Source: a virus (taxonomy: Duplodnaviria; Caudoviricetes). Taken from it: 64,000 nt of DNA. The DNA is taken from IMG/VR virus record IMGVR_UViG_3300044511_000089, positions 277 to 64,276 of that record. One strand, written 5' to 3'. Both the position numbers and the translations under genes were made by a program. Below are positions 14,421 to 51,399 of this stretch, piece after piece (position 1 is the first letter of the stretch; each line of letters starts with the position of its first letter). Under the pieces are notes generated by a model. The model was not told the origin of the DNA, made no database searches, and worked only from the letters and a program-made list of their open reading frames with translations.

Positions 14421-14782
14421 GCAAGATGACGTTTTGGGAAAGGGCGGACAAACTGCCCCCGATACTGGTTAGGCTTCTGGCCAGACAGGGAGGAAGGCCG
14501 ATGTCCATGAGCGGGATAGCGCAGGCATCCGGCCTTGAAATGCACACGGTCGATGCGTTGTCGTGGTCGCTGGACTGGAACACGGTTCCACTTGGAACCA
14601 TGAGGCGGTTCCTGACCGGGTGCGGGGTGGACTTTGCGAAGTTCAGTGAATGGAAACGGGCGGTCAACTACCTTGAGTCGCCGGGGTGCAACTTCCGATA
14701 CCTGCGGCGGCACAAGGATTGGAAATCCACCTACGAGCCTATGCTCGCGAAGTGGTTGAAATCGGTGAGTCCAACAACATGA
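14417..14782 (+). CDS. Putative HTH DNA-binding protein
   Basis: MSGIAQASGLEMHTVDAL HTH-like segment; GGAGG SD; coupled to the recombinase. Confidence 0.55.
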   Translation: MSKMTFWERADKLPPILVRLLARQGGRPMSMSGIAQASGLEMHTVDALSWSLDWNTVPLGTMRRFLTGCGVDFAKFSEWKRAVNYLESPGCNFRYLRRHKDWKSTYEPMLAKWLKSVSPTT

Positions 14783-15765: not shown

Positions 15766-15775
15766 GATGATTTGC

Positions 15776-15801
15776 TGGCGCGGTTTAACTACGCCGCGCC
15801 A
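15776..15801. terminator. Hairpin between convergent operons (terminator or att-region element)
   Basis: TGGCGCGG-N10-CCGCGCCA; more hairpins follow up to about 15920; no clear U tract. Confidence 0.35.
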
Positions 15802-15937
15802 AGCCCCGTAAGCCGTGAGAGCGGGTTAGGGAATCCAGCAGGTTTCGTCATTCCTCTGGATGCGTTCTCGACATAGGGACGCCACTCCTTGGCTGCGTCG
15901 GTGGTCGCAGTTTTACCACATCCACGGCACCACCATG

Positions 15938-18148: not shown

Positions 18149-18151
18149 AGG

Positions 18152-19171
18152 TCAGAACTGAACCATGTTCAGCTTGGTAGTTGTCCTCGGCGAGGTCACC
18201 GAGCTTTCGATGTAAAGGGTCACGTTCAACCCGTTCAGCCCTCCCCCGATTGGGTTCGGTGGGATGGCGGAGAACCGGACGTAGATGTCCCCCGGCGCAT
18301 CGCTCATGTCAACCTCGGCCAAGTTCATCCCGTCACCTACCGAAGCAATCCTTGCATCGAGTTCAACGAGGCTACGACCCCAAACCCCGGAAGCGCCGAC
18401 ACCGAACATCCACTTGAACACGGTCATCTTGTCGACAGGGATGTTGGTCGTCACCGAAAAGAGCAGGGTTCCATCGCACCGGACAATGGCGACGCCGAAG
18501 TCCACCGTGTAGATGACCGGCTGCGTCGGAACCGAGTTCCCGATGTAGATGCAGAACGGCACAAGGGTTCCGCCTATCTCGCCAAGCACGTTCACGATGG
18601 TCTGGTGGACGAACCCAACCGGATTGATGGTGCTCAGGCCATGAACGGCGATGCTGCTTGGAACCCGCGTTCCATTCCTGACCAGCTTGAACCCACGGAA
18701 ATAGAACCGGCTGGGCAATGGAGCAGCCACAAACTCGAACACAAGGGATACCTTCGAGTATCCGAATGAGGACAGGTTCGGGAACGCAGCCGACACGTCT
18801 ACCTCGACCCCGTTCTTCACTTCCTGCGGCGGGTCGGTCATGGTGATGGGCTTTACATTCCCGCCTGTTGCGAAGGTGTTCGCAGCACCAGCAGAACATG
18901 GTGACGATGGGGCCGGAGGTTCATCTGGCGGAACGACCGTGATGATGACAGGGCCGGGCGGCGGTTTATCCGATGTGACCTCCGTGACGACCCTTGACTC
19001 ATCATCGGACTGGACATCGACGATGAGCAGGTCGTTGTCCACCCTGAAGTCATCATTCTTCTCTCCGTTGACGACCACACCATTGGTGTAAGCCGAAGCC
19101 CCGGTCAGCCTGTAGGGAGGCTCGTTCACCGCCCGGTGATAGGGTGGATACGGTGAAGGCGGGTAGGTCAT
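18152..19171 (-). CDS. Putative virion structural protein
   Basis: In the virion operon; Pro-rich N-terminus; beta-rich body. Confidence 0.55.
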   Translation of the reverse strand: MTYPPSPYPPYHRAVNEPPYRLTGASAYTNGVVVNGEKNDDFRVDNDLLIVDVQSDDESRVVTEVTSDKPPPGPVIITVVPPDEPPAPSSPCSAGAANTFATGGNVKPITMTDPPQEVKNGVEVDVSAAFPNLSSFGYSKVSLVFEFVAAPLPSRFYFRGFKLVRNGTRVPSSIAVHGLSTINPVGFVHQTIVNVLGEIGGTLVPFCIYIGNSVPTQPVIYTVDFGVAIVRCDGTLLFSVTTNIPVDKMTVFKWMFGVGASGVWGRSLVELDARIASVGDGMNLAEVDMSDAPGDIYVRFSAIPPNPIGGGLNGLNVTLYIESSVTSPRTTTKLNMVQF

Positions 19172-22100
19172 CAGAACGCGAACGCCCTGTCGGATGTCCT
19201 GCCCATCCCGACGGCGGCGTCAATGAGGTTCCGTGAGTTGAGCGGTGGAGCCATTCCGGTAGACCTGCTCTTGCTGGTGCCTGTGAACGGCTTGATGCCG
19301 ATGGACAGCCCGAAGTGATTGAACACCCTGACAGCATCACTTACGGTGTCGGCCCCGTCAGTGGACATGGCCGAGAGCAGCCGTCGGTATTCACCCTCGC
19401 TCGGGGCCGTCCTGAACACCGTCCGCAACGGGTGCCTTGCGCTGAACGCCCTCTGGACGTAATCGCGCGGGTCGTCGTGACCGGCTTCTCGGGCGGCTTC
19501 GATGGCCCCTTGGTAGGCGTCCGAGAACTCGCCGGGGTCATTGCCATAGGTGGCAAGCTCCATCCTACCAAGCCACGGCGTCACCTTGGTCGGCACCGAA
19601 TAACCACCCGTTGACTGGCGCACGTCCATCTTCAAGTCACGGCCTGTGATTCTCAGCCAGTTCCGCGCGTTCAACCGCTGGATGAACCGGGACTCGGCAT
19701 TGTCCAAGTCCGCCAAGTTGTTCACCATCTGGATGTATTGCAGGGCACCACCGCCACCCGCAGCTTGGGCCAGAGGCCGGATGACCCCTGCATAGTCGGC
19801 GTCACCTTGGATGAAGAACGATTGCCCGGCCTTGAACAGGCTCAGCAGCGAGTTCACGCCGATGATGCGGCTGTCCACGGACACCCCACGATTGTCGCCG
19901 CCCTGTCCCGTGTTCACCACCGTATTGATGGCGTCACCGAACAACCCGAATGTGCCGATGCGGTTGACGTTCTCGAACGCGGCAGCCACCGGGTTCTCAC
20001 CGCCAAGCAAGCGCACGTTCCTGCGCCTCCTGAGCAGCTTCTCGTAATACGAATCCACCGCCGCAGACAGGAACAAGCCGCCGAAGAAGGTGATTCCAAG
20101 CCCCGCTATGCCCCCTAGCGCGGCCTTCATGCTGTTTCGACCCTCGGTGTTGAGCCGGAGGCCCGGTATTGCAACCATGCGCCTCCACGACCAGCCAAGG
20201 AGCGGGCTGGAGAACCGGATGATGGAGTTGTTGAACGCCGCCAGCGGCATCGTGCTGATGTTGTTCTCGGACGATACCTCGCTCATCATCATGGCGTGAA
20301 TGGCGATGGCCGTCTTGTTGGTCAGTTGGTTGGTGTCGCCCCGCTCCCGCCGTTCGATGGCGTCCTTTGCAATCGTCTTGAGGTCCAGCCCCCAATTCTT
20401 CATGTCAGCGTCGAACCGCATGAAGGAATCCTTCCTCAGGCCGGTGTAGCCCATCGTCTCGCCGGTTATCTCGGCGTCAGGGTCGCCGTCAAGAACCTCC
20501 ATCGCCCTGTTGATGTAGACCTTGGCCAGCTTCCATGTCCTGAACGTGAGCACCTTGTTCGCCACAATCGCCGAGAAGCTGAACGGGGCAAAGGGTCTGA
20601 TGAGGGTGTGCTTGGCCTCCCCGCCAGCCTTGCCCACAGCGAACCCGAGCACGTCCTGAATCCCACGGAACACCTGAGCCGAACGCTGCTCCCCTTCAAG
20701 CGGGTAACGCACGTCGGTCAGCTTCTTGACGGCAGCCGGGTCGGTCAGCTTGAGTTCCTCCCAAAGCTTTTGTTCCTCGGACTCGTTCTGCCATTGCAAC
20801 CCGATGGCTTGAACCAGCGAATGGGCTATCTCTACCCCGGCTTCGGGCACCGTGCCGCCCACAGCCTTCAACACATCACTTCCTGCCCCCCAACGGAACG
20901 ACAGGTCAACCAGCGCACCCAACTGAGCGATGGCTGACCCAATCTGGTTCACCATCATGCCCGCCAAGGTGCTGGAGAACATGAACAAGCCCCGTGTCAG
21001 GTGTTCAGGGTGATTGTCACGCCGGAAGTAGTCAGACAGGCTGTGCTTGGACTCATCAAGGATACCGAACCGTTTCTCCCACTTCACAAGGGTCTTGTAA
21101 CGCACGTCTCCAAGCTTAGCGCGAACACGCGCTTCGTGTTCTGAGGCGGAAAGGACTTCACCGGCAGCCTCCTTGTCTACCTCACGTCGGGCGTTGTCCA
21201 GCGCGTCGATGCCGGACTGCACTTCTTCGGTGAGGTCGCGCCAAGCGTTGGCCAGCGTCCTTTGCCCACGACCGAACGCCGTCTGCGCCGCAATCCTTCT
21301 CGCCACCTGCGCGGCCACCCTTTGGTCGAAGTTGTAGTAGCTGAACCATTCACCGGGCAGGTCTTCGATGACCCTCGGGTTGATGAAGGCGTCAGGGGAC
21401 ATATTCTCAATCCCTGTGACATCATTCGCCGCGTCCCCTTCCGCCTCTTTCAGGATGTGGTCGGCATGCTTGTAGTAGTAGCCGAGCCGGTTCAGGACGT
21501 AGGCCACGTATTCGGCCCTGCTCTTGCCGCTCCCCGTCAACTCGTGGAGGTTCTCCGCAAAGGCGATGACGTTCCCGCCAGACTCGTCGAACGCCTTGCG
21601 AACAAGGTAAGGGTCCGCCCTATAGCTCAACGTGTCCTTGTCACGCTTCGATTGAAGGAGCCTTCGGTATTTGACACGGTCACCACCCGATTCCTCCATC
21701 GCCTCGGCCTCCCTCAGCGCCGGGTCGCCACCCACCTTGAATACCTCGAACGCGCTTTCCCGTGGCATTTCCATCAACGGCCTGAGGAACAACGTCAGCA
21801 CCGTGTCCTTGTAGGTGCCGCCGTAGAACTTGTTCACCAAGGCTTCAAGGGCGGCCCTGTCATTTTCGTAAAGCTGGTCAGCATCGTCGAAGTTCATGTC
21901 CGACCAGCCGATGTCGCGCAGCGTCCTGACCATCATCTTGAACCTTCGGTGCAGCGTTTGCGGGAAGGTGTAGGAACCCTTCGGTATATGCCTGCGGATG
22001 GCCGTCTCGTATTTGCCGGTCGCAGGGTTGAACACTTTCAGGGATTCATCCTCAACCCCTATCCCGCTGCGCTCAACCTTGTCCATCGCCCAATCCATGA

Positions 22101-25100
22101 ACTCGGACTGCATGTCAACGAGGTCTTTGAGCGCCGAACGCCATGCCTCGGGGTCGGCTGACACGATGTGCTTCGTGCCCTCGTTGTCCATCAGCATCTT
22201 CATCACCCTGTTCCAGATGGCCGAGGTCAACGCAGAAGGGTTGTCGGCATACTTTTCCTCAAGGTCGTAGTTGTATTGCAGCGCGTTCCTGACCGGGTCG
22301 AGCATGTGCTCCCGCAGGAAGGCCCGCTTGTCGCTCACCCATTCCGGCATCAAGGCCAAGACATGGTTCTCCAAGTCGAATATCCTGCGACCGTAACGCT
22401 CGTGAGTGTTCCTGAACTCGTAGTCCAGCGTCTGGAACTTGTGCCCCATCACCATGATGGCCCGCGCGATTCCTGTCCCGAACGCATCGGCAATCTTCTT
22501 CCAGACCGGGGCGAACCCAAGCTCCATCATCAGCTTCTCCGACGCCGCCACGTTCACCCTGATATGGTGGTTGTCGGCCAGAATCCTGAACTGACGCTTG
22601 ATGTATTCGTAGTCCGAGTCCAGTGCGCCCTCGTCCCCTGATGCAGCCCGTTCCTCCCTTGCCAGCATGAACTCCTTCATCGACAGGAGCCACCCTTCGA
22701 CCTCGTCCGGGTTGGTCACGGTGCCCTTGTTGCTGAGCCGCAGCGTCTTCCTGCTGCCCTCGGACACAAGCTGTTCACGGGTCGCATCAGGCGAAGGCGG
22801 AACAACGACGGTCGCCTTGTCCAAGAACTCGAAGTCGGCGCTCAACGACAGGCCAGCGTTCAACCTGCTGACGTGCGTGTTGAGAACCTTCAGTGCCGCC
22901 TGCCCCATCTTCAGCCTGCTCTGGAGCCGTTCGTGCGCGCGACGTGCGTTCCGCAGGTCAACCTTGGCCTTCAGATGGGCGTTACGGTAGCGTTCAGCGA
23001 TGGTTGCAGTCCTCTTGAGGTCGCCCACCGACGACACCAGCGCCCGCTTGTCACCCCTGTAAACGTCCCTGTCAGCGTCAGCGACGGACTTCGCGATGTC
23101 CACACGAGCCGCCCCGTCCTGATGTTTGCGCAACTCAATCGCCGCCATCGTCCGCATGTGCGTCTTGGCGAAGGCGATGATGGAGGCGGTCATGGCGACC
23201 GAACGCAGGCTGCCATCCACCAGTTCGGCATAGGCAGGGTCCGCCTTGAGCGCCGCGATGATGTCTGCCGGTGAAGCCGTGAAGTCGATGGTCGGGTCGA
23301 GCGCCAGTTGCTCAAGAACCTCGAACAGGCCGTCCGGGTTCAGCCCGCTGTCCTTGCCGAACAGGTCATGGAAGGTGTCACCGTATTTCTTGAGTGTGGC
23401 CGACGGGTCGAGCACCTTCATCACCTGCATCACCAGCGACTCGCGCTTCGTCCTCCCTTCAAGCTGGCTGAACATCCTGCGAATCTCGCGCTTCATGGCG
23501 CTGACAGCGTTCGCAGCCGCATACAGCCAGTCGGCGTAATGGGCTTGCTCGGCTGCAAACTCATCCTCGGCCTTCACCAACACCTTTCCTGTCCTGATGA
23601 TGTCCGACATGGTTTCAGTCATCAGGCCAGCCAGTTTGCCAGCCGTCTTCTGCATGGCCCTCGCCGCCTCACCGATGGTCTTGTCACGGGCAGCCTTCGA
23701 CCTGAACCCGTCCAGACGCTTCTCAGGGTCGAACTTCACAGGGTCGCCGGTGGACTCCCGCTGCTCGGCCAGAGCCTTGTTCATCTCGCGCGGGTCGTCC
23801 ATGTTGAGCAGGCTCAGCACATGGTCGAGTGGGGTCGCCTTCTTCTTGCGCTTGGCCATGTCGCCGTTGTAGACCGCCAAGACCTCGGGGTCGGTGGACA
23901 CGGCGGTCACGGCGTCGAGCAGCGTGTTGTTCTGCGCGGCAATCATCTCGACCGCCGTGGTCCTGCTTACGGTCGGTGTCCTTGGAGCCGCTGGCATTGC
24001 ATGAGTCTGCGACCCAAGCCTTGACAGCACAGGCATCGTTTCCACCATGAACTTCTCTTTCTTAGCGTCGACCACCTGCAACACATCCGATGCCGTCGCC
24101 ATGATGTAGCGCGTGGCTTCTGCTACCTCATTGGCTGACGGGAGAACCCGCTTGAGGTCGGGCCTGTCTTTTAGCTCAGCCTTATAGCTGGCCTCCATCA
24201 ACCCCACCAAAGCCTCAATAACCCTTTGAAGGAAGCCGTTGATATTCTGAAGGATGGTCGCCAGCGCAGACCGCCTCTCTGCAACAGTCGCTCCCTTGTC
24301 CTTCAGTATCTTGCGCGCAGCATCCAATGTTGCGCCTGTCGATGTGTTGGATGTCGGGTCGCTCACACTGAACCTGCGCGGGTCGAAAAGGAATGCCACG
24401 AACTCGTGAAGGTTGGTGAGTTCGTAAGGAAGAACGACGTCCTCCTGTGCAAGCTCACCAAGAACACCCTGCCTGAACGATAAAAGCGCCTCGTCGTAGA
24501 GTTGTTGTAACCGTTCCATTGCAGACCGCTCATCGGCGCTCAGTGTCTCTGGAGCGACGTTGTATCTGTGAATCAGCCTCGATGAGACGGCGTGGATGCA
24601 CTCGTGTATCAGTGTCTGAATGGTGTAGACATCCAGCAGGTCGTCCGGGTCTAGGTTCGTTACAGCACGAGCTAGACGGAATGACTGGAGGTAGAGGGTG
24701 ATTCCGCTGGTGGAATTGTTGTAAGTCCCCATCCAAACCGGGTCCATGTGTGTATTGAGGGTTATAGGGACGTCGTCGTGTTTCAACAGCCTGACAAGCG
24801 CCCGAGCGACGACAGCCTCAGCGCGTCGTGTCTCGGTTTCCTTGGCTGCCCCCCTTTCCATGTCAGCGTTGAGAATGGTAACCAATCGCTCCATCACAGC
24901 ATGCGCACTTAGTGTGCCGTCCTTATTGGTTGCGTTCGGGAACACTTCCTTTCTCAGCTTGGTGGCGATGCCATCCACGGCCTTGGCTGACACCTGTTCG
25001 TGAATAGCGATTCTGGCCGTGTCCATCGCTTGCATGGCAGACATGCGACTTGGCCGCGCGCCGTGCTGCTCAAACTCACCTGCACTTACGCTCCACCGGA

Positions 25101-28100
25101 ACGACCATTCGCCTTCCTGCACTAGCTCGAATTGCATGGTTATTGGATAGCCACCGATGCGCACGTCCTGATTCCACCGCCGCGATTGGGGTTCGACGGA
25201 AGCGTGCCGAGTAGAACCGTAGACGTCCTCTCCAGTTCTCTCTGCCCGGTATGGTGTCTGCTTACGTCTTATATCCTCAAAGAACGATTCCTCGCGTTTG
25301 GCGTTGTAGACGTTCAACACGCGCATCGAGGTGCCTAGAAGGTATTCAAGTGCATCTCCGAGTTCACGTTCACTCACATGATGGCGGTCTATCAGGTCAT
25401 GCGCAACATCCCGCCTGACCTGCGACAGGATGAGGTTCTTCACAGCCTCGATGACACGGTGCATGAAGCCTGTGATGGACTGCATCAGCCGACCAAGCAG
25501 AATGAACCGCTCCGGCCCTCTATACCCGAGCTTGTTTGCGGCAGATTCGATAGCCTCATGGTAGCCCGAGTTGCCAAATGCGTATTCGGCTTGGCTTGGG
25601 TCAAGGACAAGGGCAAGGAACTCGTGAAGGTTGGTAAGTCCGTAAGGCAGTTTCGCTTTGGTCCCTGCTTCCTCCCGGAACTTGTATACTGCTTCCTCCC
25701 AAAGCTCCTCTAACTTGTGCATGGCCGCCAACTCCGCACGCGACAGTGTCTCGCGCATCGAATTGTATCGGTAGATGAGCCTAGAACTGGCAGCATGCAC
25801 AGCCTCGTGGATAAGGATGTCCGCTACCTCATCCAGTGGCACCGACAGCATCGTATTTCTGTTTCGTGAGTCGGTGACAATGACGCGAGTAAAGAGAGCG
25901 ATGTCGCCCGTGATGAGGTCGTAGTCGCCGTGAGAGGCACCAAACCCTTCAACCATCTTCACTCTCGCGTCATCCAGCACAACCCTAAGCCCTTCAGGTA
26001 GCACACGCTCCAGCAAGATGGCCACGACGCGTTGCGCCTGCCTGATGCGCTTTTGTCTGGCTGTCTCGTTTCGCCTCGGCTTCGTCAGGTGCCTCGCCAG
26101 CACCCCCATCGTAGCCTTGGTGTCAATGGTTCCATCCTTGGCAACGGCCTCACCGAACGCCGTGACGAGCGCGGCCTTGAAATCCGTTGCAGCCGAGGCG
26201 TTGTCAGCCTCCGCCTTCATCACCTGCGCCGCGTAAGCCTTGGCTTCCTCGTAGGTCACGTCCCGCAACGTCTCGAACCGCACACCACCGCGCGTCATCG
26301 TGGTTGTGAACTTACCGCTTCTGACGTCCTGAGTGATGGCGTAGGTCGTCATCAGCCCGTTGATGAGCGCCCCGCCCTGTTCGGCAATCCGGGTGGCCTT
26401 TGTGCTGTTGAACACCGTGGCCAAGACAGAATCGTTCGGTGCCGATGCCATCTCCACGCGCATCCCGTCCTCGGACAACATCGCAGAAGGCGCAGCCGCG
26501 TCTTGGTTCAGTTCGCGGCCAAGCTGCTCGTGTTCCTGCTGCGGTGTGAGCCTGCGCGGAGCAACCGGGGTCGCAACCGAGGGTATCCTTGTGCCGGTGT
26601 CGTCCTCCTGCTCGAACAACGGGGCCAGCTTGTCCTTCAGGTAATCCAGCGCGGGCTGGTTGACCACCCATCCAAGCTCGGGTTCGGTCACAACCTCGAA
26701 GTCAAACGCCCCACCGTAATGCCTGCGCAACCGCTCATCACCGCGCGACCCCTCGATGATGCCCTCGGCAGCATCCGTGTTCCCTTCAATCGTTCCCGCA
26801 ACCGCGTCGGTCAGCAGGAACTTGCCATTCGGCAGGGCTGTTACGGTCACGCCTTCCGGTATCGAGGCAACCTCGTCTATTGTTCCAGACTGCCCGGCTT
26901 CCTCGGACGCTGTAAGGTCTGTGGCATCAAGTTCGGTGCCGTGCTGCATGGCGTTCAGCGTCCTGAACTTCCTGTTCAACACCCCTTCGTGATGCCTGTC
27001 TGCTACGGCGTCGTTCGAGAAGATGAGCCTGATGTCCACGGGCGACTTCGTCATCATGCGGCTGACCCGCCCAAGCACTTGGTCGAACACGTCACCGGCG
27101 TAGTCCGCCGTCACGATATAGACCATGCGCGGCGCATGACCAATCTGGTCGTCTAGGTCGATTCCAACGCCACCCGACCTTGCCGTGGCAATCACGATGT
27201 CAGCGTCCCCGTTCTGGAACGCATCCATGCTCTTTTCCTTGTTGTGCCTGCCGAAGATGCCCACCCACTTCGGCTTCCTGCGAACACCCTTTGCATCCGT
27301 GACCATGACGTCATCGAGCATCCCGGTCAGGGTGTTGATGAAACCCTTGAACTTCCTGCCACGCAGCCCCTTGATTCGCGTGTCATTGATGCCATCCGCG
27401 AAGATGACCACCTTCTTGCCCTGCCTGATGTCGTTCAGCGCCAGCTTGATAACCTCACCAGCCTTGGTCGGTTCCACCCACCGGGCAAGCTCACCAAGCA
27501 TCATGGCCTTCAACCGCCCACGGTATGGCCCTTTGGCCTCGGCCATCCTTGCCTCCCAATACTCCATGATGGCTTCCTGTTCCTTTTGAAGTCGGTCGCT
27601 CAACCCAATCATCTGCTTGCGAATGGGCTGGTCGGGGTTGACCGAAAACACCGGGAAGAACCTGCGGATGAAGCCGCTGTTCCTTGCGACACCATCCCGC
27701 TTCACGGCGATGATGGAATCGATGCGGTCTTGGTCGTAGCCAGCACTGGTGTCCGGCCTGTGCTTGATGGTGATTTTCCCCTCCGCGTCCTCCTCCTCCT
27801 CGCGAATCATGCCAAGCTCGCCTTCCATCTGTTCGATGGTCTTTTCTTCCAGCTTGGCAAGGATGACAACCGCCCCTCCCGGTTTGTCGAACGGGGTAGC
27901 CGAGGCCAGCAACTCGTGGTCAGCCTTGACGTCCAAAGCGGCAAGTGTTTTGCCGCTGCCGAGGTTCTTCATGTTGTGAACCTCGTCGAATACCACGACA
28001 CCGTAGTCACCGTCGCCAATCGAGGCGTTCGGAATACTACTGGACGATGATTCCGGTAGTGCTCCCGTCTCAGCCCCTCTACGAACCCAATCGTAGGTGC

Positions 28101-31100
28101 TGAACTCGAAGTTCGTCAGGTCGATGCCGAGCCGCTTCATGTCGACGAGGAACCGGCTCCTGATGATGGGCGGAGACGGGGTGACAATGAGAACCTTCTT
28201 GCCCGTCCTCTTGGCAATCTCGTTCGCCACGACCAGTTCGGTCATGGTCTTTCCAACCCCTGTCCCGTCAGCCAGCATGAACGCCCTCAGCCTCAATGTC
28301 AGGAACCTGTGCAGCGCGTAGTTGACCGCCACCCTTTGGTGCGGGGTCAGGATGGGATAATCCGTTGACCGCAGGAAGGACGGGATGCCGGTCGGAAGGA
28401 GCTTCTCACCGGGCCAAATCAATGGCGGGCGCTTCCCGTATTTCTTCTCCGCCTCGATGGTGCGCGGGTCTACGCCTTTACGAACAGGGGGCTTAGTGGG
28501 TTCTTTCGGCTTTGTTCCTCCAGAAACGCTTCCGCCCCCGGATGTCCCGCCAGTGCCAGCCGTTCCAGAAACTCCAGTTTGCTTACCTCCGCCGGTATCG
28601 GTGGTATCGGTGCTCCCGGCGGCCAGTCCTCCCGAAGCTCCTCCATCAGAGACTTGCGTGGCCCATTGGGTCGACGCGATGACCGCTTGCGTGACTCTTT
28701 TGACGTCGGCTTCATGGCTTATCCCGCTGATGTTGACCTGTTGCGGCGCTTGCTTGTGAACGTGTCTAAGAATGGCCGCCGCCGTATTGTAAACCTGTTC
28801 GAGCGCATGCACAAGAGCCGTGAACACCTGCTGGCCCAGTGTGGCGGCGTGCTCAAACAATGCCTTCCCGACCGTCTTGATGTCTTGCGCCCCTTTCCGC
28901 ATCAGGTTGATGGCCAGATTGGTGAACGCCTTGAACTGCTCCGGTGTCAGCGCCGGGAATGACAGCAAAGCACCGCTTGCTGCGTAAAGTTCCTTTGAGA
29001 ACCGTCGAAGGATGGCAGAGTATGTCGACGGATGCGGCAGCGTCTGGCGTGTCATTCCAGCCACGCGCACTAGGTCGGCGATGCTCGGCTGTAGCAGTTC
29101 GATGTCCTTGCCGAGTTGTCGCAATACGGAATCGTAGGTCGCCGTCGCCATCACCCTGCGGCTCAGCCCACGCACGAAGTCGGTCTTGCCCTGCCCGTCG
29201 TAAGCCTTGGCCACGTCGTAGACAAACCGTTTCAGGAACAACTGGAGGAACGCCTTGTGGTCCTGAGGGATGCTGGAGATGGGCATGCCGCTCTTGACCA
29301 GCCAGTCCGACATCTCGTGCCTGCCCATGACCCGATGTTCCGCAGCCACGGTCTTTAGCAGGGCCGCGTAATCGTTCACAAACCTGTTCAGCAACCTCTC
29401 CCTCGTCGCGTTCCTTTCCTTCTTGGTCTGTCTCAATGCTTGGACCTTGCGCTCGAAGGTGTCCTCCCATGCCGCGTCGAATATCTTCCACGTCAGTTCG
29501 CCCTTCTCGGCCCACCATTGCACGGTGTCCCACAGGGTTGAACCGATTTCCTCAACCCTTCTTCGGGCGTTGTCGTGCGCGTCCTCAACCAAGTCCTCCC
29601 TTGGGGCGGTCTTGGCCTCGATGATGAGCGACTCGGGAGTGCTCCCCGGTTCCTCGGCTTGGGCTTCTTCCTCAGCCGTCGCTTCGATGGATACCGCTTC
29701 TTCCTCCCCCATCTGCTCCTGCCGCTGTTCCATCATCAATGCGCGCTGCGCTTCCTCAAGAACGGAGTAGCGCGACCGCGTGGTTGCCTGCATGTCACGG
29801 GCCGGTTCAGCGAACTCCTTCTCGAACTGTTCGACCGAGTCGTAAATGCTGTAATACTTCCTGATTCGGTATTTGAACCGGGCCGATGCAATCGGCACGT
29901 AGCGCAACTCGCCGTTCTCCATCCTCTCCGCAAGAATCTCAGGCAGTCTCCTGTTCCACTTTGATTTCCTGTTCTTGGCGTTCTCAGGCCAAATCATCCA
30001 GTCCTCGAACGCCCCTCCCTTGGTGAACCGTCTCAGGAACGACCCGCCAATGACCTTGCCAGTCTGCTTGTCGAGCAGGTAGACGACCTTCTTTGACTCG
30101 TGCTCAAGGTGGATGTCGCCCTCCGTGCCAGCCGACGTCCTGCCTTCGCTGGCGAAGGTGTCCATCAACCTTGGGACGTTGGCGAGTTCGTCCGGGCTGA
30201 TTTCGTAGAAGGCCGGGACGATGTGCTTGTCAACCTCGTTCGCCAAGTCTTGGTTCAGGTCCGCTTCCTGCGCCTTCAAGTAATTTCGGGCGACGGCGAT
30301 GCGTTCGCTCAGGGTGGGCAGGTTCGGGCCGGGACGTTCATCCGAACCCTTGGTCCTGAGTTCGTCCTCAAGTTCCTTGATGAGCTTCAGCGTTTCCTCG
30401 ATGCCAGCCACTCGCTTTTCGAGGACCGCCTTCGCCCCTTCAAAGATACCGTATTCCTTGATGATGGAATCCACCCTGTGCTTGACCTCATCCGGCGTCA
30501 CCAAGCGTTCGACGGCACCCTTGGTCAGCTTGATGCCCGGCTTCACCTTCTCGGCAATCAGCACCGTGTTGTCGAAGTCGATGTCCTCGGGTGTCAGGAG
30601 TTCGTGCCCGGTCTTGTGCGCCTCGACCACCTTGCGCACCCTGCGCCCAATCTTCTCGCGCATCGCCGACCACGCTTGGAAGAACTTGTCGTAGGAGTTC
30701 GGGTAGTTCTCCTTGAGATACTGAAGTATCTCGTCCCTGATGTAACCGAAGGCGGCTTGGTCGCGGTTGAGCGCGCCGAAGAAGTTCTCATTCACTTCGG
30801 TTCTCAGGAAGTAAGGTTTGCCCTCCGGTGCGAACAGCCGGTGCTTCTTGAGCAACTCGACCAGTTCAGCCCCGTTCAACGAGAACATCCAGTTTTCAAA
30901 GGCTGCGAAGTAGGCCGGGGCCACTTCATCCGGTTGCACATCCTTGATTTGCTTCCTGATGGTCTTGAAGATGTTCACGAACTCGCGCTGCCTGCCGCCT
31001 TGAGCGAACTCTGAGAACACCGCCTGTTGAATCCGCAGCTTCCTCGTCCCCGATTGCTCAATCTCTTTCACGGCTTCGAGTGCCATCCAGTCCACGACAT

Positions 31101-34100
31101 CACCTGCGCTTGCCAGTTCGTCATTGTCGAGGTCGGCTTTCCCAAGCCATTCCAGCATCACCTTGCGATAGGTCGTGACGAAATCCTTGATGGCGTTCGC
31201 GGTTCCCTTGGCAGCCTGATACGCAACGATTCCGGCCCTTATAGCGTGCGGCATCGCGTCCTCGACCGCTCTTATCATCGCCCACGTCACCACACCGGAA
31301 ATGGGTTCAATGAAGCTGAACAGCCTTGCCCTGTTCGCCTTCGACCTTGCCTCTGCGTTGGCAAGCATCCGCTTCAACGCGGCTTCAATCGGGTCGTCAC
31401 CAGCAGCCTTGGCAGCGGCTTCTTGCTCTGCTTCTTGCTTTGCAGCTTCCTCGAACAACTTGCGGACACGCTCGCCTGCCGCATCAATCATCGCCTCGTC
31501 CGCCTTGGCTTCGAGAGCCTCAACGTCGGTGGCATCCACCATCCCCACCACCACGGTTCCGTGTTCCGTCTTGATGACCTTGTCCACAACTCGGCCTGCG
31601 TCTTCCTTCTTGGCGGGTTCAGCCTGAGGGACGGCGTCAGCGGGTTTCGCAGGAGATGGGGCAGGCTTGGGTTGCTGCTCCACCACTTGAGTCACAGGGA
31701 TGGCGTCGTCTGGAACAACCGAAAGAGCGACAACAGCCTCGGTCTTGCCTTCACGCGCCTTGGCGTCCTCTGCGACCACCTGTTCGGTGGCCTTTGCAAA
31801 CAGAGCGTCGAGTTCGGGCGTTGATGCCGTCGGGGTTACCGGAGCAACTGGTTCGGTCGGTGTCAGCACCGCCATCACCGCGCCCATGTCTATCACCGCT
31901 TCTTCCTTGACGGGCTTTTCCTTCGTCTCCTTTGGCTTTGGAGCAGCTTCCTGCTTCGGCTCGACAAGCTTCCTGTGGGCCGCTGTCGCCTTTGCCATTG
32001 CGTCCACCGCCGAGAGCAGCTTCTTGCGGTTGGTTTCGGTCGGGTTCTTCTTCCACTCCGCCCTGAGTTCCTCGACCTTCTTGAGGGCGGAGGCGAGTTC
32101 CGCCTTGGATTCCTTGATGCGCGCCGCCTGTTTCTTCGTGGCGTCCTCGACCTTCGTGTTCTTGAGCGCCTGAGTCTCGGCGGCCAAAGCCCTTAGCTCG
32201 GCGTCCAACTCCTTGTTGGCCTCCTTGATGCGTTCTGTGTCCTTCGACTTCTTGGCTTCGTCACTCTTTTCCTTCGCGCGACTCACCCTTGTCAACCTGT
32301 CGGCGACCTTCTTCTTGCCTGCCTTCACTTCCTCGGCTTCTTCCTCGGGTGCGGCTTTCTTCGCTTCAGTGGCTGGCTCTAGCTTCTTGGTCGGGGCAGG
32401 AGCCAGTCCGCGCGTCACCAGCTTCGCCATCACAGCCCTGACCTCGGGCGTAATCTCAATGTCAATGGCGCTGCCTGAAATGGTCTTGTAGATGTCGTTC
32501 ATCCACTTCTTGATGGCCGCGAAGACCTTCTTCAACGTGGCGTTCTCAGCCCCGCCGTCATAGAGGAACCGCTCGAACCCACGGGCGAACTTCTCCTCGG
32601 CAGCCTCGCTCCACACGCCATCCTTGGCACCGGCCCAATCCTCCACGGTCTTGATGTCCCCGTCCGTGATGCCGCTGCGGTGCTCGGCGGGGACATTACG
32701 GTTTAGCAGGTTCAATCGTGCGACGTGCGCCATCTCGTGCACGAACGAACTGAAGTCCGCGTTCTTGAAACCCCAGATAATGGCACGACCATCTGCGGCG
32801 ATAGCCACCATCGCCTTCGCCCCGAGACGGGAGCCTTGGAAGAACGTGCTTGCGGTCGGCTCCTGACCCGCTATTCCGCCCGACTCGTAGTGAAGAACCT
32901 CGACAGGGGACAGGTCGCGGCCATTCACCCCTACGATGTGGATGAGCTTATCGTCGAAGATGACGTAGTTGTAAGTCGCATCCTTTTTAATCCGGTCATA
33001 GTGCGCTTGTGCTTCGTCGCGCGTAGCAAACAGTTGCAAGCCAAGTGACCCCCCTGATACGCGCCATAAGCCGCCGTCCTCCTGATGCTGTTCTGGAGGT
33101 GTGACGCGGCTGAACTGGTCCTTGTAGCGGATACCCTTGACACCGTGTGCACGCAACGCTTTGGACGCCACGCGCTTGTTGTAGTGCGTTTCGGGGCCGT
33201 ATCCGACCAGATAGTTGTATGCGAACCCCCCATTCGCATTCAACTCTTTAGACACGTCATCGTCCGGTGCCACCCCTAACGCATCGATGGCCTTCTTTAC
33301 GACATCGGGTTGTTCACCAAGCGGTGCATCCCAATCGAGCAACTCATCCACGTTGGCGTCCACTGACACCTTGTAGATTGGGGTCTTCTGCCATTTCCAC
33401 TGTATGCCGCGCTCCTTTAGTGCCTCAGGGTTTCGCTCTAGTTCATACAGAATATCCCGCACCTGAGCCAGCGCGTCTTCTAACTCTGTGTCTACGGGTG
33501 ATGATGGAAACCCGGCTGCTTCCCTGTGTTTTTTGACGTCTATGGCTATATCCAGTCCCTTACGAGCAAAGATGACGTCCTCAAGCGTTACGGGTCCATC
33601 CTCGCTAACATCTCTGCGCTGCTGAATCGCACTCCATAGCCGATTGGCCACATGGTGATTTAGTAGCACATCCTCCGTTAGAGGCCGGTTGTTCTTGTCC
33701 ACCACGCTTGCGCCAGACAGTGGCAGTCTGTCTGACATCTCGTCCTGATATTGCTTTGCGACGGCGGGTGATTGGGCAATGTAGATGCCCCAGCCGAATG
33801 ACGCAGTGCCCTGACCGTTGCCAATGAACTTAACCAGAAGCCTTCGCTCCTGAGGATTCTTCTGGTTTAGAATGTCGGCATAGGATGCGTGCAACCCTTC
33901 AAGCTGAAGCAGGATTCCGCCGCCATCGAAGTCCTTCGGTATCTCCGCGCTTGGCGCTGCGATGGCCAGCCTGTTGAGCGGTATGCCCATCGCCTTGGCC
34001 AGTGCGACAGCCGCCTCCGCTTGGTCGTCGTCCAGATGGAACGCCTTCTTCAGGATGCCGCGTGACACCGCATGGATGTCCTTCGATTCCTCCCATGCCT

Positions 34101-37100
34101 TCTGCTCGGCGTCCTTCTTGCGCTTCTTGGCCTCGGCCAGCAACGCTTCGTTCTCCTTGATGAGCGGCCAATACTTCGCCGTGAGGTCGGGATACTCAAG
34201 GATGCCAGAGCCGACTTCCTTGTCCTTCTCAGCCAGTTCAATGACCCGTTCCCTGTGAAACGCCTCGATTTGCGGAAGATGCGCCTGTATCCATTGAGAG
34301 GAAGCCGTGGCAGACAGGAGACTAATCAACCCGTCCAGCGTGGTGTGGGGAAGGATGATGTAACGCGACAGGATGCTCCTGAGTTCCGGGTCGATGGCCA
34401 CCGGCGGTGGGGCCGTGGCGGGTGCTGGCTGTGCGGCGGCCTCCTTGTCGGCATCCGCCTTGACCCGTTCCCAAATCCTCTGCGCCCGTTTCTCCGAGAT
34501 GCGTCCACGATACTTCCCGTGGATGCCCTCGGCTGACAGCATCCCGGTTCCCTTGCTGGCGAAGTATTTGTTCGTCGCCTTGACCTGCGCAACGAGGTCG
34601 TCGTCCAGCTTGTCCGATTCAGCCTTCAACAGTTCGTAGGCGGCCCGCTTCTTTTCCTCGACTTGAATGGCGTGCAAGTCGCCTTCACCGGCTGATTCTT
34701 CCTCGACGAGGGTGGCAAGGCTTCCAAGCTGCCGTTCGGTAAGGCCGAGCTTGGTCTTTACTTCGGACGTGATGCGGCTCACCAGCTTGGCGTTGCTCGC
34801 CTCGGAAGGCTTCTTCTTCGGTTGCGCCACCTTCTTGGCAGGCTCCTTCACAGCCTCCTTTGCAGGTGCCGTCACCTTTTCTGTCTTCTGCGCGACCTTC
34901 GGTGCAGGTGCAGGAGTAGGAGTAGGAGCCACAGCCTTGGGCTTCGGTGGGGCCGCTACGGTTTCCTCTTTCTCCGAAACCTTCAGGCCACCCACACCAA
35001 GGTCGGACGGATGGTATTGGTACGCGCTCTTTGACCCTTCGGGGACTGCCTCGACAAGCTCCGGGCTGATGATGTCCGTGACGGTGACGTTTTCGCGCAC
35101 CATCTCGTTGTTCAGCTTCCTGCGTCCCGTGGTCTGCTGGCCAATCGTGATGGCGACACCCTTGTCGTCGACCAGTGTTGGAACCTTCCGCGTGATGGCC
35201 GGTGCTGGCTCAGGCTCAGCCGGTTCTTCGGCTGGCTTCGCAGCCTCGGGGACAGGCTGGATTTTATTCAGCAAACCGATTGCGCCTTCCTTGACCTTCT
35301 TCTGTTCCTCAGGCTTCAGGTCGGCGAATGGCCGGTGGATGTCGGGCGCGTCCCCAATCAACTGCTTCCGCTCGTCCACGTCGGACCCGTTCCAGATGTG
35401 CGCCGCAGCCTCGTCCTCGGTGAACTTGCCGAACACCTTCTTGACCTTCCAACGACCGTTCGCGTCCAGTGACTGTGTTCCATCCTCGTTGAACTGGACC
35501 GCAAGGACAGGCTGGTCGCTGCGCTTGCCCGCCTCGTCCACGGTGTAAATCAGCCCGCCAAGAATGGCCGCCTTGCCTCCATAGTATTGCTCGAAATTGT
35601 CCTGTGTCAGAACCGTGTCCCCATCAAGGACAAGCTCGCCGTTGAACCGAATCCCGGTATCAGCCTCCGGTGTCGGTGTAGGTGTCACCGCTCCGCTGGC
35701 AGCAGGTGTTCCGGCAGGCGGCGTTGCGGTTCCAGCAGGAGCGCCAGCAGGTGGGGTCGCGGGGCCAGCAGGAGCGCCAGCAGGTGGCGGTTCCTCGGTC
35801 GCCGGTGGTTCGGTTCCAGTGTCCTCCGTTTTGGGCGCTTTCCGTGTGGGCGGTGGCTTCCTGTGAACCAAGGCCGAGAACGGGGAACTGATGCCGACAC
35901 CCGCAGCGCCACCAATCGCGCTGTTGATGACCCTGTCCACGTTGTCGCGCGTCCACACGATTTCCTTCTTCGCAGCGTGCGCCTCGGCAGCGATGTTGAT
36001 GACCTCCTGCAACCCTTCCGTGATTGCCTCCGAAGGGATGCTATCCGCCGCGTCTTGAATGACGCGAACAAGATAATGCTTCGCTTGTTTCTGGCCCAAC
36101 CCCGGAAACTTCAGGGCAAGCGCCTTGGCTGATACAAGGTTCTGGACGTTGTTTGGCAGCATGTCCAGAGAGCCGACGGCCAGACCGTAGGTCAGGGCGT
36201 AGAACAACCTGTCCGATTCCGGGATGTCCGGGTTGGCCATGAGGTTCTGGTAGACCTCGCCCTGCCCAAGCGCCGCCGAGTTCGCCATCACCACGCCTCG
36301 GGAAGCCCACAAGCCCTTTGTCGCGTTTATCTCCTGAGTCAGCAGGCTCCTGCTTATGGGTGACAGGGCCGCCGCTCCAATCCGCCCCTCAAGTGCGTCG
36401 GTCAGTTCTTTCTTAACCACGGCTTGAGCAGCGTCGGTCAGCCCGTGTCCAATCTCCTTGGCGACTGCCTTCTTCAAGAGGCTCTTGACCGCCGACTTGC
36501 CAAGGAAGCCACCGATAAACCCTACCGGCGCAGCTTCCGGCCCTGCTGCGCCTGTACTTATCAACGCCCCTGCTACGCCCGTGGCTGTGGACTCAACAAT
36601 GGACGGGAACACTTGGCCCGCTTGTGAAGCGAGATACTTGGCAAGCGAGGAAGCTGAATCAACGTCCCTGTAGCTTGGAACGGCTGGCCGCAGGTCTTCC
36701 CTCGTCGCCTGTGCCTCGGCCTTGTGCGCCAGCTCACCGAAGAACTTCTGCCCACCCTCGAAGTCAGCGACCGCACTCGCCAACTGACCGAAAGAGGCGA
36801 TGGTCGACCCGAGACTGTAGGTGCCAGCCTTGATGCCCTTGACACCCTCGGCGATGACACCGCTGCTCGGGACGAATGATTCAGCAAGCTCTCTGGCTCG
36901 CTTCACAGCAGGCGACTCGCCCGTCTTCAGGGCGTTGTAACGCGTCAAGAATGACGGTTCCGCAGTCCTAAGCTCGTCAGGAGAGGCGGCGTCTCCCATC
37001 GCCTGAATGATGTCGTTGTCAGTGCGGGTGTCATTCGGGTAACGGGCGCGATGCTGTCGCAGGAGGATGTCGATGGGACTCTCCCCAGTCGCAGCGGCAC

Positions 37101-37125: not shown

Positions 37126-37131
37126 GGCGTG

Positions 37132-38937
37132 TTAAATGTTGTGCAGGAAGAACTGTCCACCCCTCACCTTGTCTCGATACGTGTAAATCATCCTGAGCGC
37201 ATCAACATCACCTTGGCTGGCGGCGTCAATCGTCTGCTGGATGAGCAACGGACTCATGCCGTCGCGCGTGGCGAGTTCCCTCATCTTCTGGCCTTCTTCG
37301 GGTGAGAAGTTGAAGTCAACGGTGCCGAACGACTGCATGGCGCGTTGTGCCGATTCAGGGTTCAGTCCGTTGACAGGCGAACCGGCGTCACTACGAGGGC
37401 CGCCTTCAAACTTGAGCGGGATAGCTGGTGTTACAACATCACCCGACGCGCCGCTTCTCTGAGCTTCATTTTGTATGAAGCTTTTTAATGTGCGCTCCCA
37501 GAGTTCCATCTCCTGCTTGTGTGTCAAAGGCTCATCAGTCCGCTGTCTGAATGGATGCTGAAACCTTGGCTTGCTGGCGTCAAAATATGCCCACCTCCAA
37601 TCCCGTGGCCCGATGCTCGAGATGCCAGCCATCGGCCCGAGTTGATTCTTTACCACCTCATCTACAACTCCAAGACCTTCACCCCTCATCTTACGGAGCG
37701 GTAGAATTTGCCAGTCAAACTCACCCGCTGGAAACCCCATTGCCTTTATAATCTCCCCCTGTGTTAAATCAGGCTGTGTCGTTGTGACTGGCGGCGGCTC
37801 GGTGCCCGGAGGTTTGGTGCCGCCTTCGCCTTTCTGCGGGACTTGCGGGACTTGCGGGACTTGCGGTATCGGGAACAGGGTGGGGTCGACCCGGCCCGCG
37901 CCATCGCCCGCCGCGCCACCTCCTGCGCCACCACTCTTGCGATTCATGTATTCAAGAGCGATGATGCGAGCCTCGTTGCTCATTGTGTTGAACTGCTTCT
38001 CACCAACCTCCCTATACCACCGGAGCCTGCTTTGGGTCCGGTCGAAGTATTCCCTGAAGTAAGCCTTCTGCACCAGTGACGCCGATGAGCCGCCCTTCTC
38101 GGTCGCTGCGCGGTTGTTGAACTCATCGAGAACAGCCGTCAATCCCTGTAGAATCGTGTTCGACTTCTTCTCATCGAGACGCCCGGTGATTCCGGTCGGA
38201 CTCTTGATGGCGGAAGAAACGAACTGATTGAGAATCGTCGCAAGGGAATCTGTCGTTGCCTTCGGGCTTACCGATTCTTCGAGCAACGCCTTTCTGATGC
38301 CCTCCAATGCTGTGTGGTCGCGCCCAAGCTGCATTGCGGCGCTGCTGTTGGCAAAGTCCTTGACGCGCTCCCTTGCTTGGGTCAACTGCATCGACCCGAC
38401 CATGCGGTTGATTTGCTGTTCAGCCGCCCGCTCGTCCTTCTCCTGCATCTCCACGAAGTTGATGTAGGAATTGGCCTGCGCCCGGTTGATTTGTGAGAGC
38501 AGTTGTGCGTGCAGCGCCGGACTCTTGACTATATCCACGAAGTTGACCACGCCGTTCTCACGCATGAAGAATGAGACATCAACCCCGTGCTCCAGTGCCT
38601 TGTCGCGCAACTTGGAGGCTTGGTCCAGCCACTCAGATTCTGTCTTTGCTTCTTTTTCACGCCGAAATGCGAGTGCAGCCTCATTCTCCTTCGCCGTCTG
38701 CATTTTAACCTCATGCATAAACCTCGCGTTCTGCATGGCGTAGTCGTGCTGCTGAGCGGCATCCGTCTGCTCTCTCGCGAACATCCTGCGGCTGGCTTCC
38801 TTCATCGCCTCCATCTCGCCAGCAGACCGTTGCTGAGCCAGAGCAAGCCGCATCTGCGCCTCCTGACCGGCACGCCTTCGGATGTCCTCGGACACCTCAA
38901 GGATGGGTCTGAACGCGGCGTCAAAAGGGTTGGGCAT
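37132..38937 (-). CDS. Putative ejection protein (P22 gp20 position)
   Basis: Helical, Q/A/E-rich; lies between the gp7-like gene and the giant protein. Confidence 0.6.
   Translation of the reverse strand: MPNPFDAAFRPILEVSEDIRRRAGQEAQMRLALAQQRSAGEMEAMKEASRRMFAREQTDAAQQHDYAMQNARFMHEVKMQTAKENEAALAFRREKEAKTESEWLDQASKLRDKALEHGVDVSFFMRENGVVNFVDIVKSPALHAQLLSQINRAQANSYINFVEMQEKDERAAEQQINRMVGSMQLTQARERVKDFANSSAAMQLGRDHTALEGIRKALLEESVSPKATTDSLATILNQFVSSAIKSPTGITGRLDEKKSNTILQGLTAVLDEFNNRAATEKGGSSASLVQKAYFREYFDRTQSRLRWYREVGEKQFNTMSNEARIIALEYMNRKSGGAGGGAAGDGAGRVDPTLFPIPQVPQVPQVPQKGEGGTKPPGTEPPPVTTTQPDLTQGEIIKAMGFPAGEFDWQILPLRKMRGEGLGVVDEVVKNQLGPMAGISSIGPRDWRWAYFDASKPRFQHPFRQRTDEPLTHKQEMELWERTLKSFIQNEAQRSGASGDVVTPAIPLKFEGGPRSDAGSPVNGLNPESAQRAMQSFGTVDFNFSPEEGQKMRELATRDGMSPLLIQQTIDAASQGDVDALRMIYTYRDKVRGGQFFLHNI
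37846..37866. repeat. 9-bp tandem coding repeat (PQV)n
   Basis: GCGGGACTT repeats encoding PQVPQVPQ. Confidence 0.7.
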
Positions 38938-46004: not shown

Positions 46005-46005
46005 G

Positions 46006-47397: not shown

Positions 47398-47408
47398 GAC
47401 TGCCTCTT

Positions 47409-47448
47409 ACAACAAACAAGGGGCGGGCGCAAGCTGCACCCGGCCCCT
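47409..47448 (-). terminator. Rho-independent terminator after the capsid and decoration genes
   Basis: GC-rich stem AGGGGC..GCCCCT followed on the minus strand by TTGTTTGTTGT. Confidence 0.6.
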
Positions 47449-47476
47449 CGCCACACACTTCACCCCACTGAAAACC

Positions 47477-51375: not shown

Positions 51376-51399
51376 AATCTTAGTCTTCTGGTTGTGGCC

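Follow-up and report, generated by a model that had tools for sequence, protein, structure and literature searches.

The window analysed here is a stretch of 64,000 nucleotides, positions 277 to 64,276 of the virus record IMGVR_UViG_3300044511_000089 (IMG/VR), which measures 64276 bp in total. The record is a temperate phage of ~64 kb and probably a short-tailed one. It carries an integrase gene at 14686-15765(+) and a large terminase (TerL) gene at 54467-55993(-), and DnaB, primosomal and exonuclease genes are also present. On the minus strand lies a single giant open reading frame (ORF) of 17955 nt, or 28% of the window. The giant ORF and the features of its product are given below from the N- to the C-terminus, with positions in amino acids (aa).

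19171..37125, minus strand: giant ORF; 5984 aa from a GTG at 37125, or 5978 aa from an ATG at 37107; ~658 kDa; 1 Cys
35776..37068, minus strand: N-module, aa ~20-450; Gly/Ala-rich, moderately hydrophobic, kept at the N-terminus of relatives
32926..33918, minus strand: ART-PolyVal-like domain, aa ~1070-1400, with a ~200-aa helical insert; candidate catalytic residues H1079, Y1115 and D1391
32416..32838, minus strand: putative zincin 1, aa ~1430-1570; HEMAH at 1463 and conserved EEKFARGFE at 1510
31636..32418, minus strand: Lys/Glu/Ala-rich (K/E/A) linker by composition, aa ~1570-1830
28666..31638, minus strand: helical region with no function assigned, aa ~1830-2820, including a sub-domain (aa ~2295-2498) common to 6 family members
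28498..28650, minus strand: Gly/Ser/Thr (G/S/T) linker, aa 2826-2876
26899..28431, minus strand: putative SF2 (SNF2-like) helicase, aa ~2899-3409; motif I DGTGVGKT, motif II DEVH (3047), motif VI QVLGRVSR
25270..26157, minus strand: putative zincin repeat 2, aa 3657-3952; HEAVH at 3773
24034..24942, minus strand: putative zincin repeat 3, aa 4062-4364; HECIH at 4174; holds the sole Cys of the protein
19174..23988, minus strand: C-module, aa ~4380-5984; family-defining and always C-terminal
20068..20124, minus strand: conserved, strongly hydrophobic helix, aa 5668-5686; a basic patch comes next (LGKKRNLRP in the family consensus)

The protein has a three-part build, with an N-module, an all-helical C-module containing a strongly hydrophobic helix, and between them a payload of ~3930 aa strung on low-complexity linkers. 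As predicted from the sequence, the payload comprises an ART-PolyVal-like domain, three HExxH zincin-like domains, an SF2/SNF2-like helicase and unnamed helical domains.

The frame is coding over its full length, since the GC content of the third codon position exceeds that of the first, and that of the first exceeds that of the second, in 15 of 15 bins of 400 codons. The database form of the protein starts at the ATG six codons downstream of the GTG (5978 aa). Two database forms exist, one residue apart, and this difference corresponds to a G>T change at 29741, near aa 2462, which is present in sequencing runs X2-X4 and is the sole variant over 18.5 kb. An artefactual fusion of several genes could be suspected in a metagenome-derived genome, all the more as the length is extreme compared with the listed relatives (at most 4733 aa among 149). 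It is made practically negligible by the assembly data. Positions 18900-37400 lie within single Logan contigs in run X1 (51.5 kb) and in run X3 (38 kb), with 0-1 differences and no indel; the ORF is covered by two overlapping contigs in run X2, and 30 of 30 bins of the ORF region are covered in run X4. Runs X1-X3 are possibly the source samples and are therefore not independent evidence for the assembly, while X4 is not flagged as a possible source. The near-identity of the two database forms, the uniform coding periodicity and the presence of the N- and C-modules in the right order point the same way. The ten listed runs with this sequence are all lake-water metagenomes, and no RNA run is found among the runs listed. 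The phage reaches a depth of ~100x in lake samples.

A preliminary description of the window, made from the sequence alone, had reported one open frame over 28% of its length, with Gly/Ala-rich hydrophobic segments near both ends, and had named a misassembled fusion as a possible refutation. The frame is upheld by the ORF call and the coding periodicity, and the contigs dispose of the fusion. The domain coordinates agree with the re-derived ones to within ~30 nt. The hydrophobic segments are found at aa 172-217 and 399-420 on the N-terminal side, and at aa 5381-5408, 5668-5686 (Kyte-Doolittle 1.84) and 5754-5772 on the C-terminal side. The segment at aa 5668-5686 is, from its sequence, a candidate membrane-inserting helix.

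The two modules define a large family. An exhaustive HMMER search with the last 1200 aa returned 495 cluster representatives (50% identity) at E≤1e-3, of which 340 at ≤1e-30. Nearly all are ~2400-4700 aa long and matched at their C-terminus. Ten representatives that were looked up are all metagenomic (JGI/IMG, ENA, Logan) and bear the name 'hypothetical protein' at most. The modules were counted in 149 listed relatives, 128 of which are at least 2000 aa long. The C-module, with a median span of 1552 aa, ends within 60 aa of the terminus in 128/128 long relatives, and the N-module starts within the first 100 aa in 100/128 (phmmer and hidden Markov model searches). Between the modules, the long relatives have a median of 1080 aa (range 481-2440), compared with ~3930 aa in the giant protein. 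Outside the modules, phmmer detects almost nothing in common. When the middles of 13 long relatives were scanned with Pfam, InPase was found in 6, ResIII in 2, and ART-PolyVal, LPD37, AAA_34, Helicase_C_4 and DUF6302 in one each. Since the modules are kept at the termini and the middles vary in length and domains, the architecture of the family is one of constant ends around an exchangeable payload.

No Pfam or PHROG family corresponds to the N- or C-module in the giant protein, and no Pfam family does in the 13 long relatives. A word search of the literature found no paper on this family, although such a search cannot prove that none exists. A search for related loci in viral contigs with a single C-terminal protein gave none. 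A pattern-based scan of genome contigs with a narrower alignment gave no relative either, which is not proof of absence from cultured genomes. The family is new as a large, uncatalogued, metagenome-only family with N- and C-modules of its own; the modules are possibly already contained in the domain lists of Iyer 2017 (PMC5512222).

The AlphaFold2 (AF2) model of the last 835 aa is all-α-helical, with a predicted local distance difference test score (pLDDT) of 79.5. The helical C-terminus of ~1600 aa that had been described at the outset therefore holds for the 835 aa covered by the model. In BFVD, two matches to the C-module are obtained at E≤0.001, an unnamed phage protein fragment (E 3.9e-23, TMq 0.43) and a protein labelled 'Large polyvalent protein associated domain-containing protein' (LPD; E 4.1e-4). 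The C-terminus falls in the ESM Atlas among unnamed viral clusters and one cluster with LPD39 in 55% of its members.

The first recognizable element of the payload is the ART-like domain. A search with aa 1060-1580 among shorter proteins gave 234 matches. Among the matches listed, 29 of 120 carry ART-PolyVal (PF18760), and others carry LPD3 (PF18798) and further polyvalent-protein families of the PF187xx/PF188xx series. In the homolog P0010, a full PF18760 copy occupies residues 430-583 and the region of the giant protein aligns to the adjoining residues 605-967, whereas the partial PF18760 matches of P0084, P0004 and P0038 lie over the very segment aligned with aa ~1100-1135 of the giant protein. 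A profile iterated from the P0010 copy matches aa 1099-1133 of the giant protein with 17.5 bits, and finds the same N-terminal half in insert-bearing homologs with E-values of 1e-13 to 1e-22. In the alignment of the domain (A1), the columns of H1079, Y1115 and D1391 are conserved as H, Y and D. An H-Y-D triad, with H in strand 1, Y in strand 2 and D in strand 5, is the active-site signature of polyvalent-protein ARTs (Iyer 2017, PMC5512222). The AF2 model of the ART region and zincin 1 (pLDDT 73.8) has strands at the ART motif positions. On the basis of the PF18760-bearing homologs, the profile match and the H-Y-D columns, aa ~1070-1400 are assigned by sequence comparison to a divergent ART-PolyVal-like domain, split by the ~200-aa helical insert.

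Zincin 1 matches phrog_9880, a family of unknown function, with an E-value of 3.6e-24 over aa 1427-1570. Both HEMAH and the downstream EEKFARGFE are kept across the alignment, giving an HExxH motif followed by a later Glu, and ~70 of the 121 fetched proteins align over this domain. It also provides the single link to the named phage records searched. In tblastn searches, zincin 1 alone was found, in 38 phage records including Bordetella phage BPP-1 (Bbp10), Xanthomonas CP2-like phages and Pseudomonas phage AF. Megablast of the giant ORF, tblastn of aa 2985-5984, and tblastn of the neighbouring 863-aa and 601-aa gene products found nothing in the same set of 50,697 phage records. The phage is distant from cultured ones: none of these four queries matched there, and zincin 1 is the one domain that did. 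Sequence and profile searches of the PDB with both halves of the protein, two neighbouring genes and the profiles A1 and A5 returned nothing at E≤0.001. A search for homologs of similar length returned only the giant protein itself and P0003, a protein described below.

Zincin 1 is followed by the linkers and the unassigned helical region, for which the ESM Atlas gave no usable named match (aa 1950-2820). The fraction of K, E and A is 0.49 in aa 1601-1800, and that of G, S and T is 0.32 in aa 2801-3000; the composition confirms both kinds of linker proposed in the preliminary description. A further linker lies at aa ~420-490.

The helicase motifs I, II and VI are intact. The domain scores 24.6 bits with ResIII, for a Pfam cut-off of 22.5, and matches phrog_62 (E 8.6e-20), while DEAD, SNF2-rel_dom and AAA_34 are all under their Pfam cut-offs and NCBIfam gives weak matches to motif I only. 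P0003, a protein of 4097 aa with LPD38, RadC, SNF2 and AAA_34, has a helicase with 29% identity to it (E 4e-52), and matches to P0177 and P0222 were also obtained. The match to P0222 is in three pieces because of inteins: in residues ~1650-2390 of this 4733-aa protein, the helicase is broken by Hint and LAGLIDADG domains. The helicase had been described as a Strawberry notch one. That label was considered and is not established, as AAA_34 reaches 21.1 bits for a cut-off of 27 and covers the motif I region only. Neither the C-lobe Helicase_C_4 nor the SnoC winged helix is matched in the giant protein or in the helicase relatives P0003 and P0177, and the helicase of the sole family member scanned that has both AAA_34 and Helicase_C_4 does not match that of the giant protein at E≤1e-3. 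The SF2 assignment itself is retained on the strength of the motifs, ResIII and phrog_62.

Zincin repeats 2 and 3 are 33% identical to one another (E 1e-37), and both have HExxH and a conserved NLHEF. Two stretches of the repeats match phrog_2206, annotated as 'virion RNA polymerase' (E 7e-7). The one Pfam peptidase match is a weak one of repeat 3 to SprT-like (E 0.021). A two-repeat profile weakly matches aa 2222-2264 of the N4 virion RNA polymerase (vRNAP), which contain its only HExxH, with an E-value of 0.0025 in a search of 3 sequences. No homologs of aa 3650-4400 were found among shorter proteins.

A very long, helical protein with linker- and coiled-coil-like K/E/A-rich stretches could also be a ruler or fibre, that is a tape-measure-like or fibrous tail protein with incidental enzyme motifs, and one BFVD match (E 0.32) is labelled tape measure. 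This is very improbable given the intact and conserved helicase and peptidase motifs, the polyvalent proteins among the homologs, and the gene scans of the window (Pfam, PHROGs), in which no tape-measure family, tube or sheath gene was found.

The combination of at least two unrelated effector-type domains (ART-like, three HExxH, SF2 helicase), the homologs that belong to the polyvalent domain network (those bearing PF18760 or LPD3, the P0003 helicase, and the InPase, ART-PolyVal and LPD37 of relatives) and the virion-gene context argue that the giant protein is very probably a polyvalent protein in the sense of Iyer 2017, as had been suggested initially. The polyvalent proteins described in that source (PMC5512222) likewise combine in one chain an ART with H-Y-D, one to several metallopeptidase (MPTase) zincins, an SNF2-like ATPase and large unnamed domains, and are likewise encoded among the virion genes of portal-terminase phages. 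The differences are the size of the payload, ~3930 aa here, and the fact that no Pfam model derived from Iyer 2017 scores on the giant protein itself.

The late operon is on the minus strand, and the giant gene stands near its end. The operon starts with the terminase gene, followed by unrecognised head genes and by a YadA-head fibre gene. Then come genes for a 772-aa virion protein, for a Gly_rich_2 fibre (40843-42498), and for proteins of 273, 364 and 601 aa, the giant gene, and two more coupled genes. Thus the giant gene shares its strand with the TerL, fibre and virion genes, in a portal-terminase phage context, and is translationally coupled inside the structural operon. The neighbouring features that matter below are the following.

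45048-46115, minus strand: fibre or spike with YadA-head repeats and a K1-lyase_C intramolecular chaperone domain; no Cys
38943..40037, minus strand: 364-aa gene, candidate first ejection protein; 0 Cys; BLASTP matches to ORFs of the related viral contigs L003, L004 and L008 (E 3e-9 to 2e-13)
37132..38937, minus strand: 601-aa gene directly upstream of the giant gene, candidate second ejection protein; 0 Cys

The giant gene is the third and largest of a block that begins with the 364-aa and 601-aa genes and lies downstream of the fibre genes. A review of ejection proteins describes their genes as a small operon whose last ORF is the largest, and notes that size and synteny are the usual grounds for recognising homologs. 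Of 7 related viral contigs, 3 have a homolog of the 364-aa gene two genes upstream of their giant gene. BPP-1 Bbp10 (2052 aa) and vir555_00054, which are homologs of zincin 1, are each encoded by a large gene situated after 'internal virion protein' genes and before a tail fibre gene.

Composition is consistent with this position. The giant protein has 1 Cys in 5984 residues and the 601-aa and 364-aa products have none, whereas 15 of 21 other window genes examined encode 0.9-4.8% Cys. The median is 0% in the 128 long relatives. Proven ejected proteins are similarly poor in Cys, with 1/196 in T7 gp14, 0/747 in gp15, 0/1318 in gp16, 0/3500 in N4 vRNAP, and 0, 0 and 1/2052 in Bbp12, Bbp11 and Bbp10 of BPP-1. 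A word search of the literature found nothing on cysteine-free ejection proteins, with the reservation that a word search cannot prove that nothing exists; the word 'cysteine' is absent from the ejection-protein review and from the available text of the N4 paper (PMC13434306) and of Iyer 2017 (PMC5512222).

Synteny in relatives, the homology of zincin 1 to proteins in the gp16 position and the Cys-poor composition bear out the earlier proposal that the giant gene is the third, largest gene of a block resembling the ejection genes of podoviruses. The labels given at the same time to upstream genes (GNAT, gp7-like, gp20-like) are not backed by any Pfam or PHROG match.

The integrase gene comes after the giant gene in 4 of these 7 contigs, immediately so in L004, L005, L006 and L008. 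The distal end of a late operon next to an integrase gene, as in the window and in these four, is a common site for accessory genes. The giant protein could then be a late cytoplasmic multi-enzyme or a moron product absent from the virion and acting in the lysogen or the producing cell, for instance in superinfection exclusion or defence. Such a role is quite improbable. It would not be expected of a gene translationally coupled within the structural operon, with ends conserved across hundreds of clusters, a Cys-free composition like that of proven ejected proteins and domains typical of delivered polyvalent proteins. In addition, the relative P0068 provides a bridge to a relative of a protein detected in virions, gp47 of phage phi24B. 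P0068 has the N-module of the giant protein (E 4.8e-39), zincin 1, and a C-terminal part of ~880 aa that resembles a 2808-aa ORF of Stx2 phages (tblastn E 4e-63). The counterpart of this ORF in phi24B, gp47 (2811 aa; LPD5, LPD1, LPD38, MuF-C), was found in virions by proteomics and proposed to be an ejection protein (10.64898/2026.04.10.717836). In the Stx2a-converting phage (L012, 2033-11739), the 2808-aa ORF (2 Cys) lies at the genome end and is preceded by a 421-aa ORF with 0 Cys, a pattern that the window also shows.

The giant gene is therefore read as encoding a polyvalent protein of the phage type with a second role as large third ejection protein, in the position of T7 gp16 or N4 vRNAP, with a probability of roughly 0.65. 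Taken separately, packaging and ejection of the protein are likely. Participation of the C-module in a trans-envelope or inner-membrane assembly is a possibility with somewhat less than even odds. Cutting of the chain into separate enzymes by the zincins, proposed like a conduit role in the preliminary description, is doubtful.

Several observations weigh against this reading. Packaging, ejection, cleavage and enzyme activities are inferred from computation. Pfam has no match at E≤0.1 in aa 1-2600, so that the gathering threshold of PF18760 is not reached, and elsewhere gives sub-threshold or generic helicase matches only. Foldseek, queried with whole models, returned nothing from the PDB at E≤0.001. 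With the model of the ART region and zincin 1, neither an ART nor a zincin fold was confirmed, and in this model the stretch preceding HEMAH is helical, with low confidence, and is not a sheet. Accordingly, the ART-like domain announced in the preliminary description stands by homology and its H-Y-D columns, and the three zincins stand by their HExxH motifs, homology and the match to phrog_2206, and not through their folds; the ART-like domain has no Pfam match of its own. With the C-module model, the best PDB match has an E-value of 0.067. In BFVD, an 'internal virion protein D' of an Erwinia phage comes up at E 0.11, which amounts to no detectable similarity to T7 gp16. The 601-aa and 364-aa products match no known ejection protein in the family libraries or the PDB. 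The absence of Cys is not specific, since the 443-aa and 355-aa products of the window, which are virion proteins that are not ejected, are also devoid of Cys. The link to the virion-detected gp47 is indirect, as the Stx-phage ORF is not matched by the N and C profiles of the giant protein, and hhalign of the C-module with P0068, which bears LPD38, gives a probability of 0.2 and thus no match to the LPD38-type C-terminus. Finally, N4 vRNAP, the nearest case that has been studied, is packaged unprocessed (Iyer 2017, PMC5512222), which weakens the self-cleavage step.

Some of these points would suit a mere passenger, packaged and injected as an effector like P1 DarB or T4 Alt and having no part in a conduit. 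The modules would then be packaging or targeting signals. In Iyer 2017 (PMC5512222), polyvalent proteins are treated as head-packaged effectors without a conduit role. Also in keeping with a passenger are the lack of structural similarity to T7 gp16 and the presence of just one strongly hydrophobic helix. It is nevertheless an improbable alternative. The gene comes third, and is the largest, behind two Cys-free genes, an arrangement also seen in T7, BPP-1 and N4; the late operon has no other candidate of the size of gp16, and the C-module of 1550 aa is conserved far beyond the needs of a mere signal.

The combination of a polyvalent and an ejection protein can be compared with known systems. 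T7 gp16 (internal virion protein D) is likewise helical, and its gene is third and largest in the ejection operon; it has predicted membrane helices, an enzyme domain and no Cys in 1318 residues. The giant protein differs in having no transglycosylase domain and no significant sequence or structural similarity to it; searches by sequence, profile and structure found no similarity to P22 gp16 either. N4 vRNAP (gp50), the third ejection protein of Schitoviridae (PMC13434306), is similarly giant (3500 aa), Cys-free and ejected. Its peptidase region is the one weakly matched by the zincin repeats, and outside the HExxH region the sequences are unrelated. The giant protein has no RNA polymerase domain, and its phage is temperate, with an integrase. 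BPP-1 Bbp10 and other phrog_9880 proteins have in common with it the zincin HExxH...EEKFARGFE (E 2e-11 and 3.6e-24), the gene position and the near-absence of Cys, but they are one-third its size (~2000 aa) and zincin 1 is the only shared domain. Both phi24B gp47 and the 2808-aa ORF of the Stx2 phage are, like the giant protein, very large polyvalent proteins of temperate phages of ~60 kb. They have no direct sequence or profile match to its N- or C-modules, and the LPD5, LPD1, LPD38 and MuF-C domains carried by gp47 are absent from it, with no Pfam match for LPD38. P1 DarB, which is packaged in the virion and delivered to counter restriction, also contains an SF2 helicase (Iyer 2017, PMC5512222). 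DarB is a methylase-helicase dyad and not an ejectosome component, and no methylase was detected in the giant protein with Pfam.

The preliminary description considered the giant protein the strongest candidate in the window for an undescribed system. This does not hold, because the concept has been in print since 2017, and N4 already offers an established giant third ejection protein and phi24B a proposed one. Iyer 2017 (PMC5512222) had put forward both co-delivery with the DNA and the release of separate units by MPTase processing, and the 2811-aa polyvalent protein of phi24B virions is described in 10.64898/2026.04.10.717836.

If the giant protein is an ejected polyvalent protein, a plausible sequence of events would be as follows. 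Several copies would be packed in the head together with the Cys-free 364-aa and 601-aa products. On infection, the chain would exit via the tail like a string of beads, loosely joined or partly unfolded, with Pro/Ala/Thr, Lys/Glu/Ala and Gly/Ser/Thr linkers between the domains, as described for N4 vRNAP (PMC13434306). The near-absence of Cys would avoid trapping by disulfides. The N- and C-modules would attach to or insert into the envelope and inner membrane, and host proteins and nucleic acids would be acted on by the ART-like domain, the peptidases and the helicase before phage transcription. Self-cleavage, in line with the hypothesis of Iyer 2017 (PMC5512222), may be one of the steps.

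A broader and tentative proposal, with the odds rather against it, is that of a 'cargo-bay' ejection family. The fixed N-module and the C-module of 1550 aa would form the membrane end of the ejectosome, the middle would be an exchangeable payload bay of which the giant protein is the extreme member, and the low Cys content would be a general signature, readable from sequence alone, of proteins that have to be threaded through a phage tail. What is new here is the cargo-bay build, the extreme payload of the giant protein and the Cys-free signature; the concept of delivered polyvalent proteins was already known.

Other observations concern the rest of the window. The genes that probably encode the capsid (443 aa) and the portal (863 aa), at 49711-53991 (-), are without Pfam or PHROG match, as are most neighbouring genes, and the head module is very divergent. 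At 47372-49600, ORFs of 721 aa (+) and 554 aa (-) overlap on opposite strands, and neither has a match in Pfam or PHROGs. Downstream of the giant gene, at 15938-19171 (-), 339-aa and 736-aa genes with ~1% Cys and no family match are coupled to its end and precede the integrase gene; by analogy with T7 and BPP-1, they might encode fibres. A scan of 15600-19400 for promoters and terminators gave results at chance level. At 2670-5938 (+), genes for a MoxR-type AAA+ ATPase (AAA_5) and a CobT-like VWA protein are separated by one gene, and this group is kept in the related contig L006 (18447-21257). No tRNA genes were found.

Proteins injected by phages decide the outcome of host defence, because they are active before any phage gene is expressed. 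The giant protein would be an extreme of this strategy, with 28% of a genome devoted to one polypeptide of 658 kDa that carries an ART-like domain, three peptidase-like domains and a helicase. The family of 495 clusters (50% identity), found in metagenomes only and outside the curated libraries, has fixed ends and a swappable middle. It provides a natural catalogue of candidate early effectors, and a test bed for the packing and tail threading of very large proteins. The Cys-free signature, if general, would be a cheap flag for ejected proteins in uncultured phages. If the cargo-bay proposal is true, the family would be the phage counterpart of polymorphic toxins, with at least five enzymes here in a bay of ~3930 aa.

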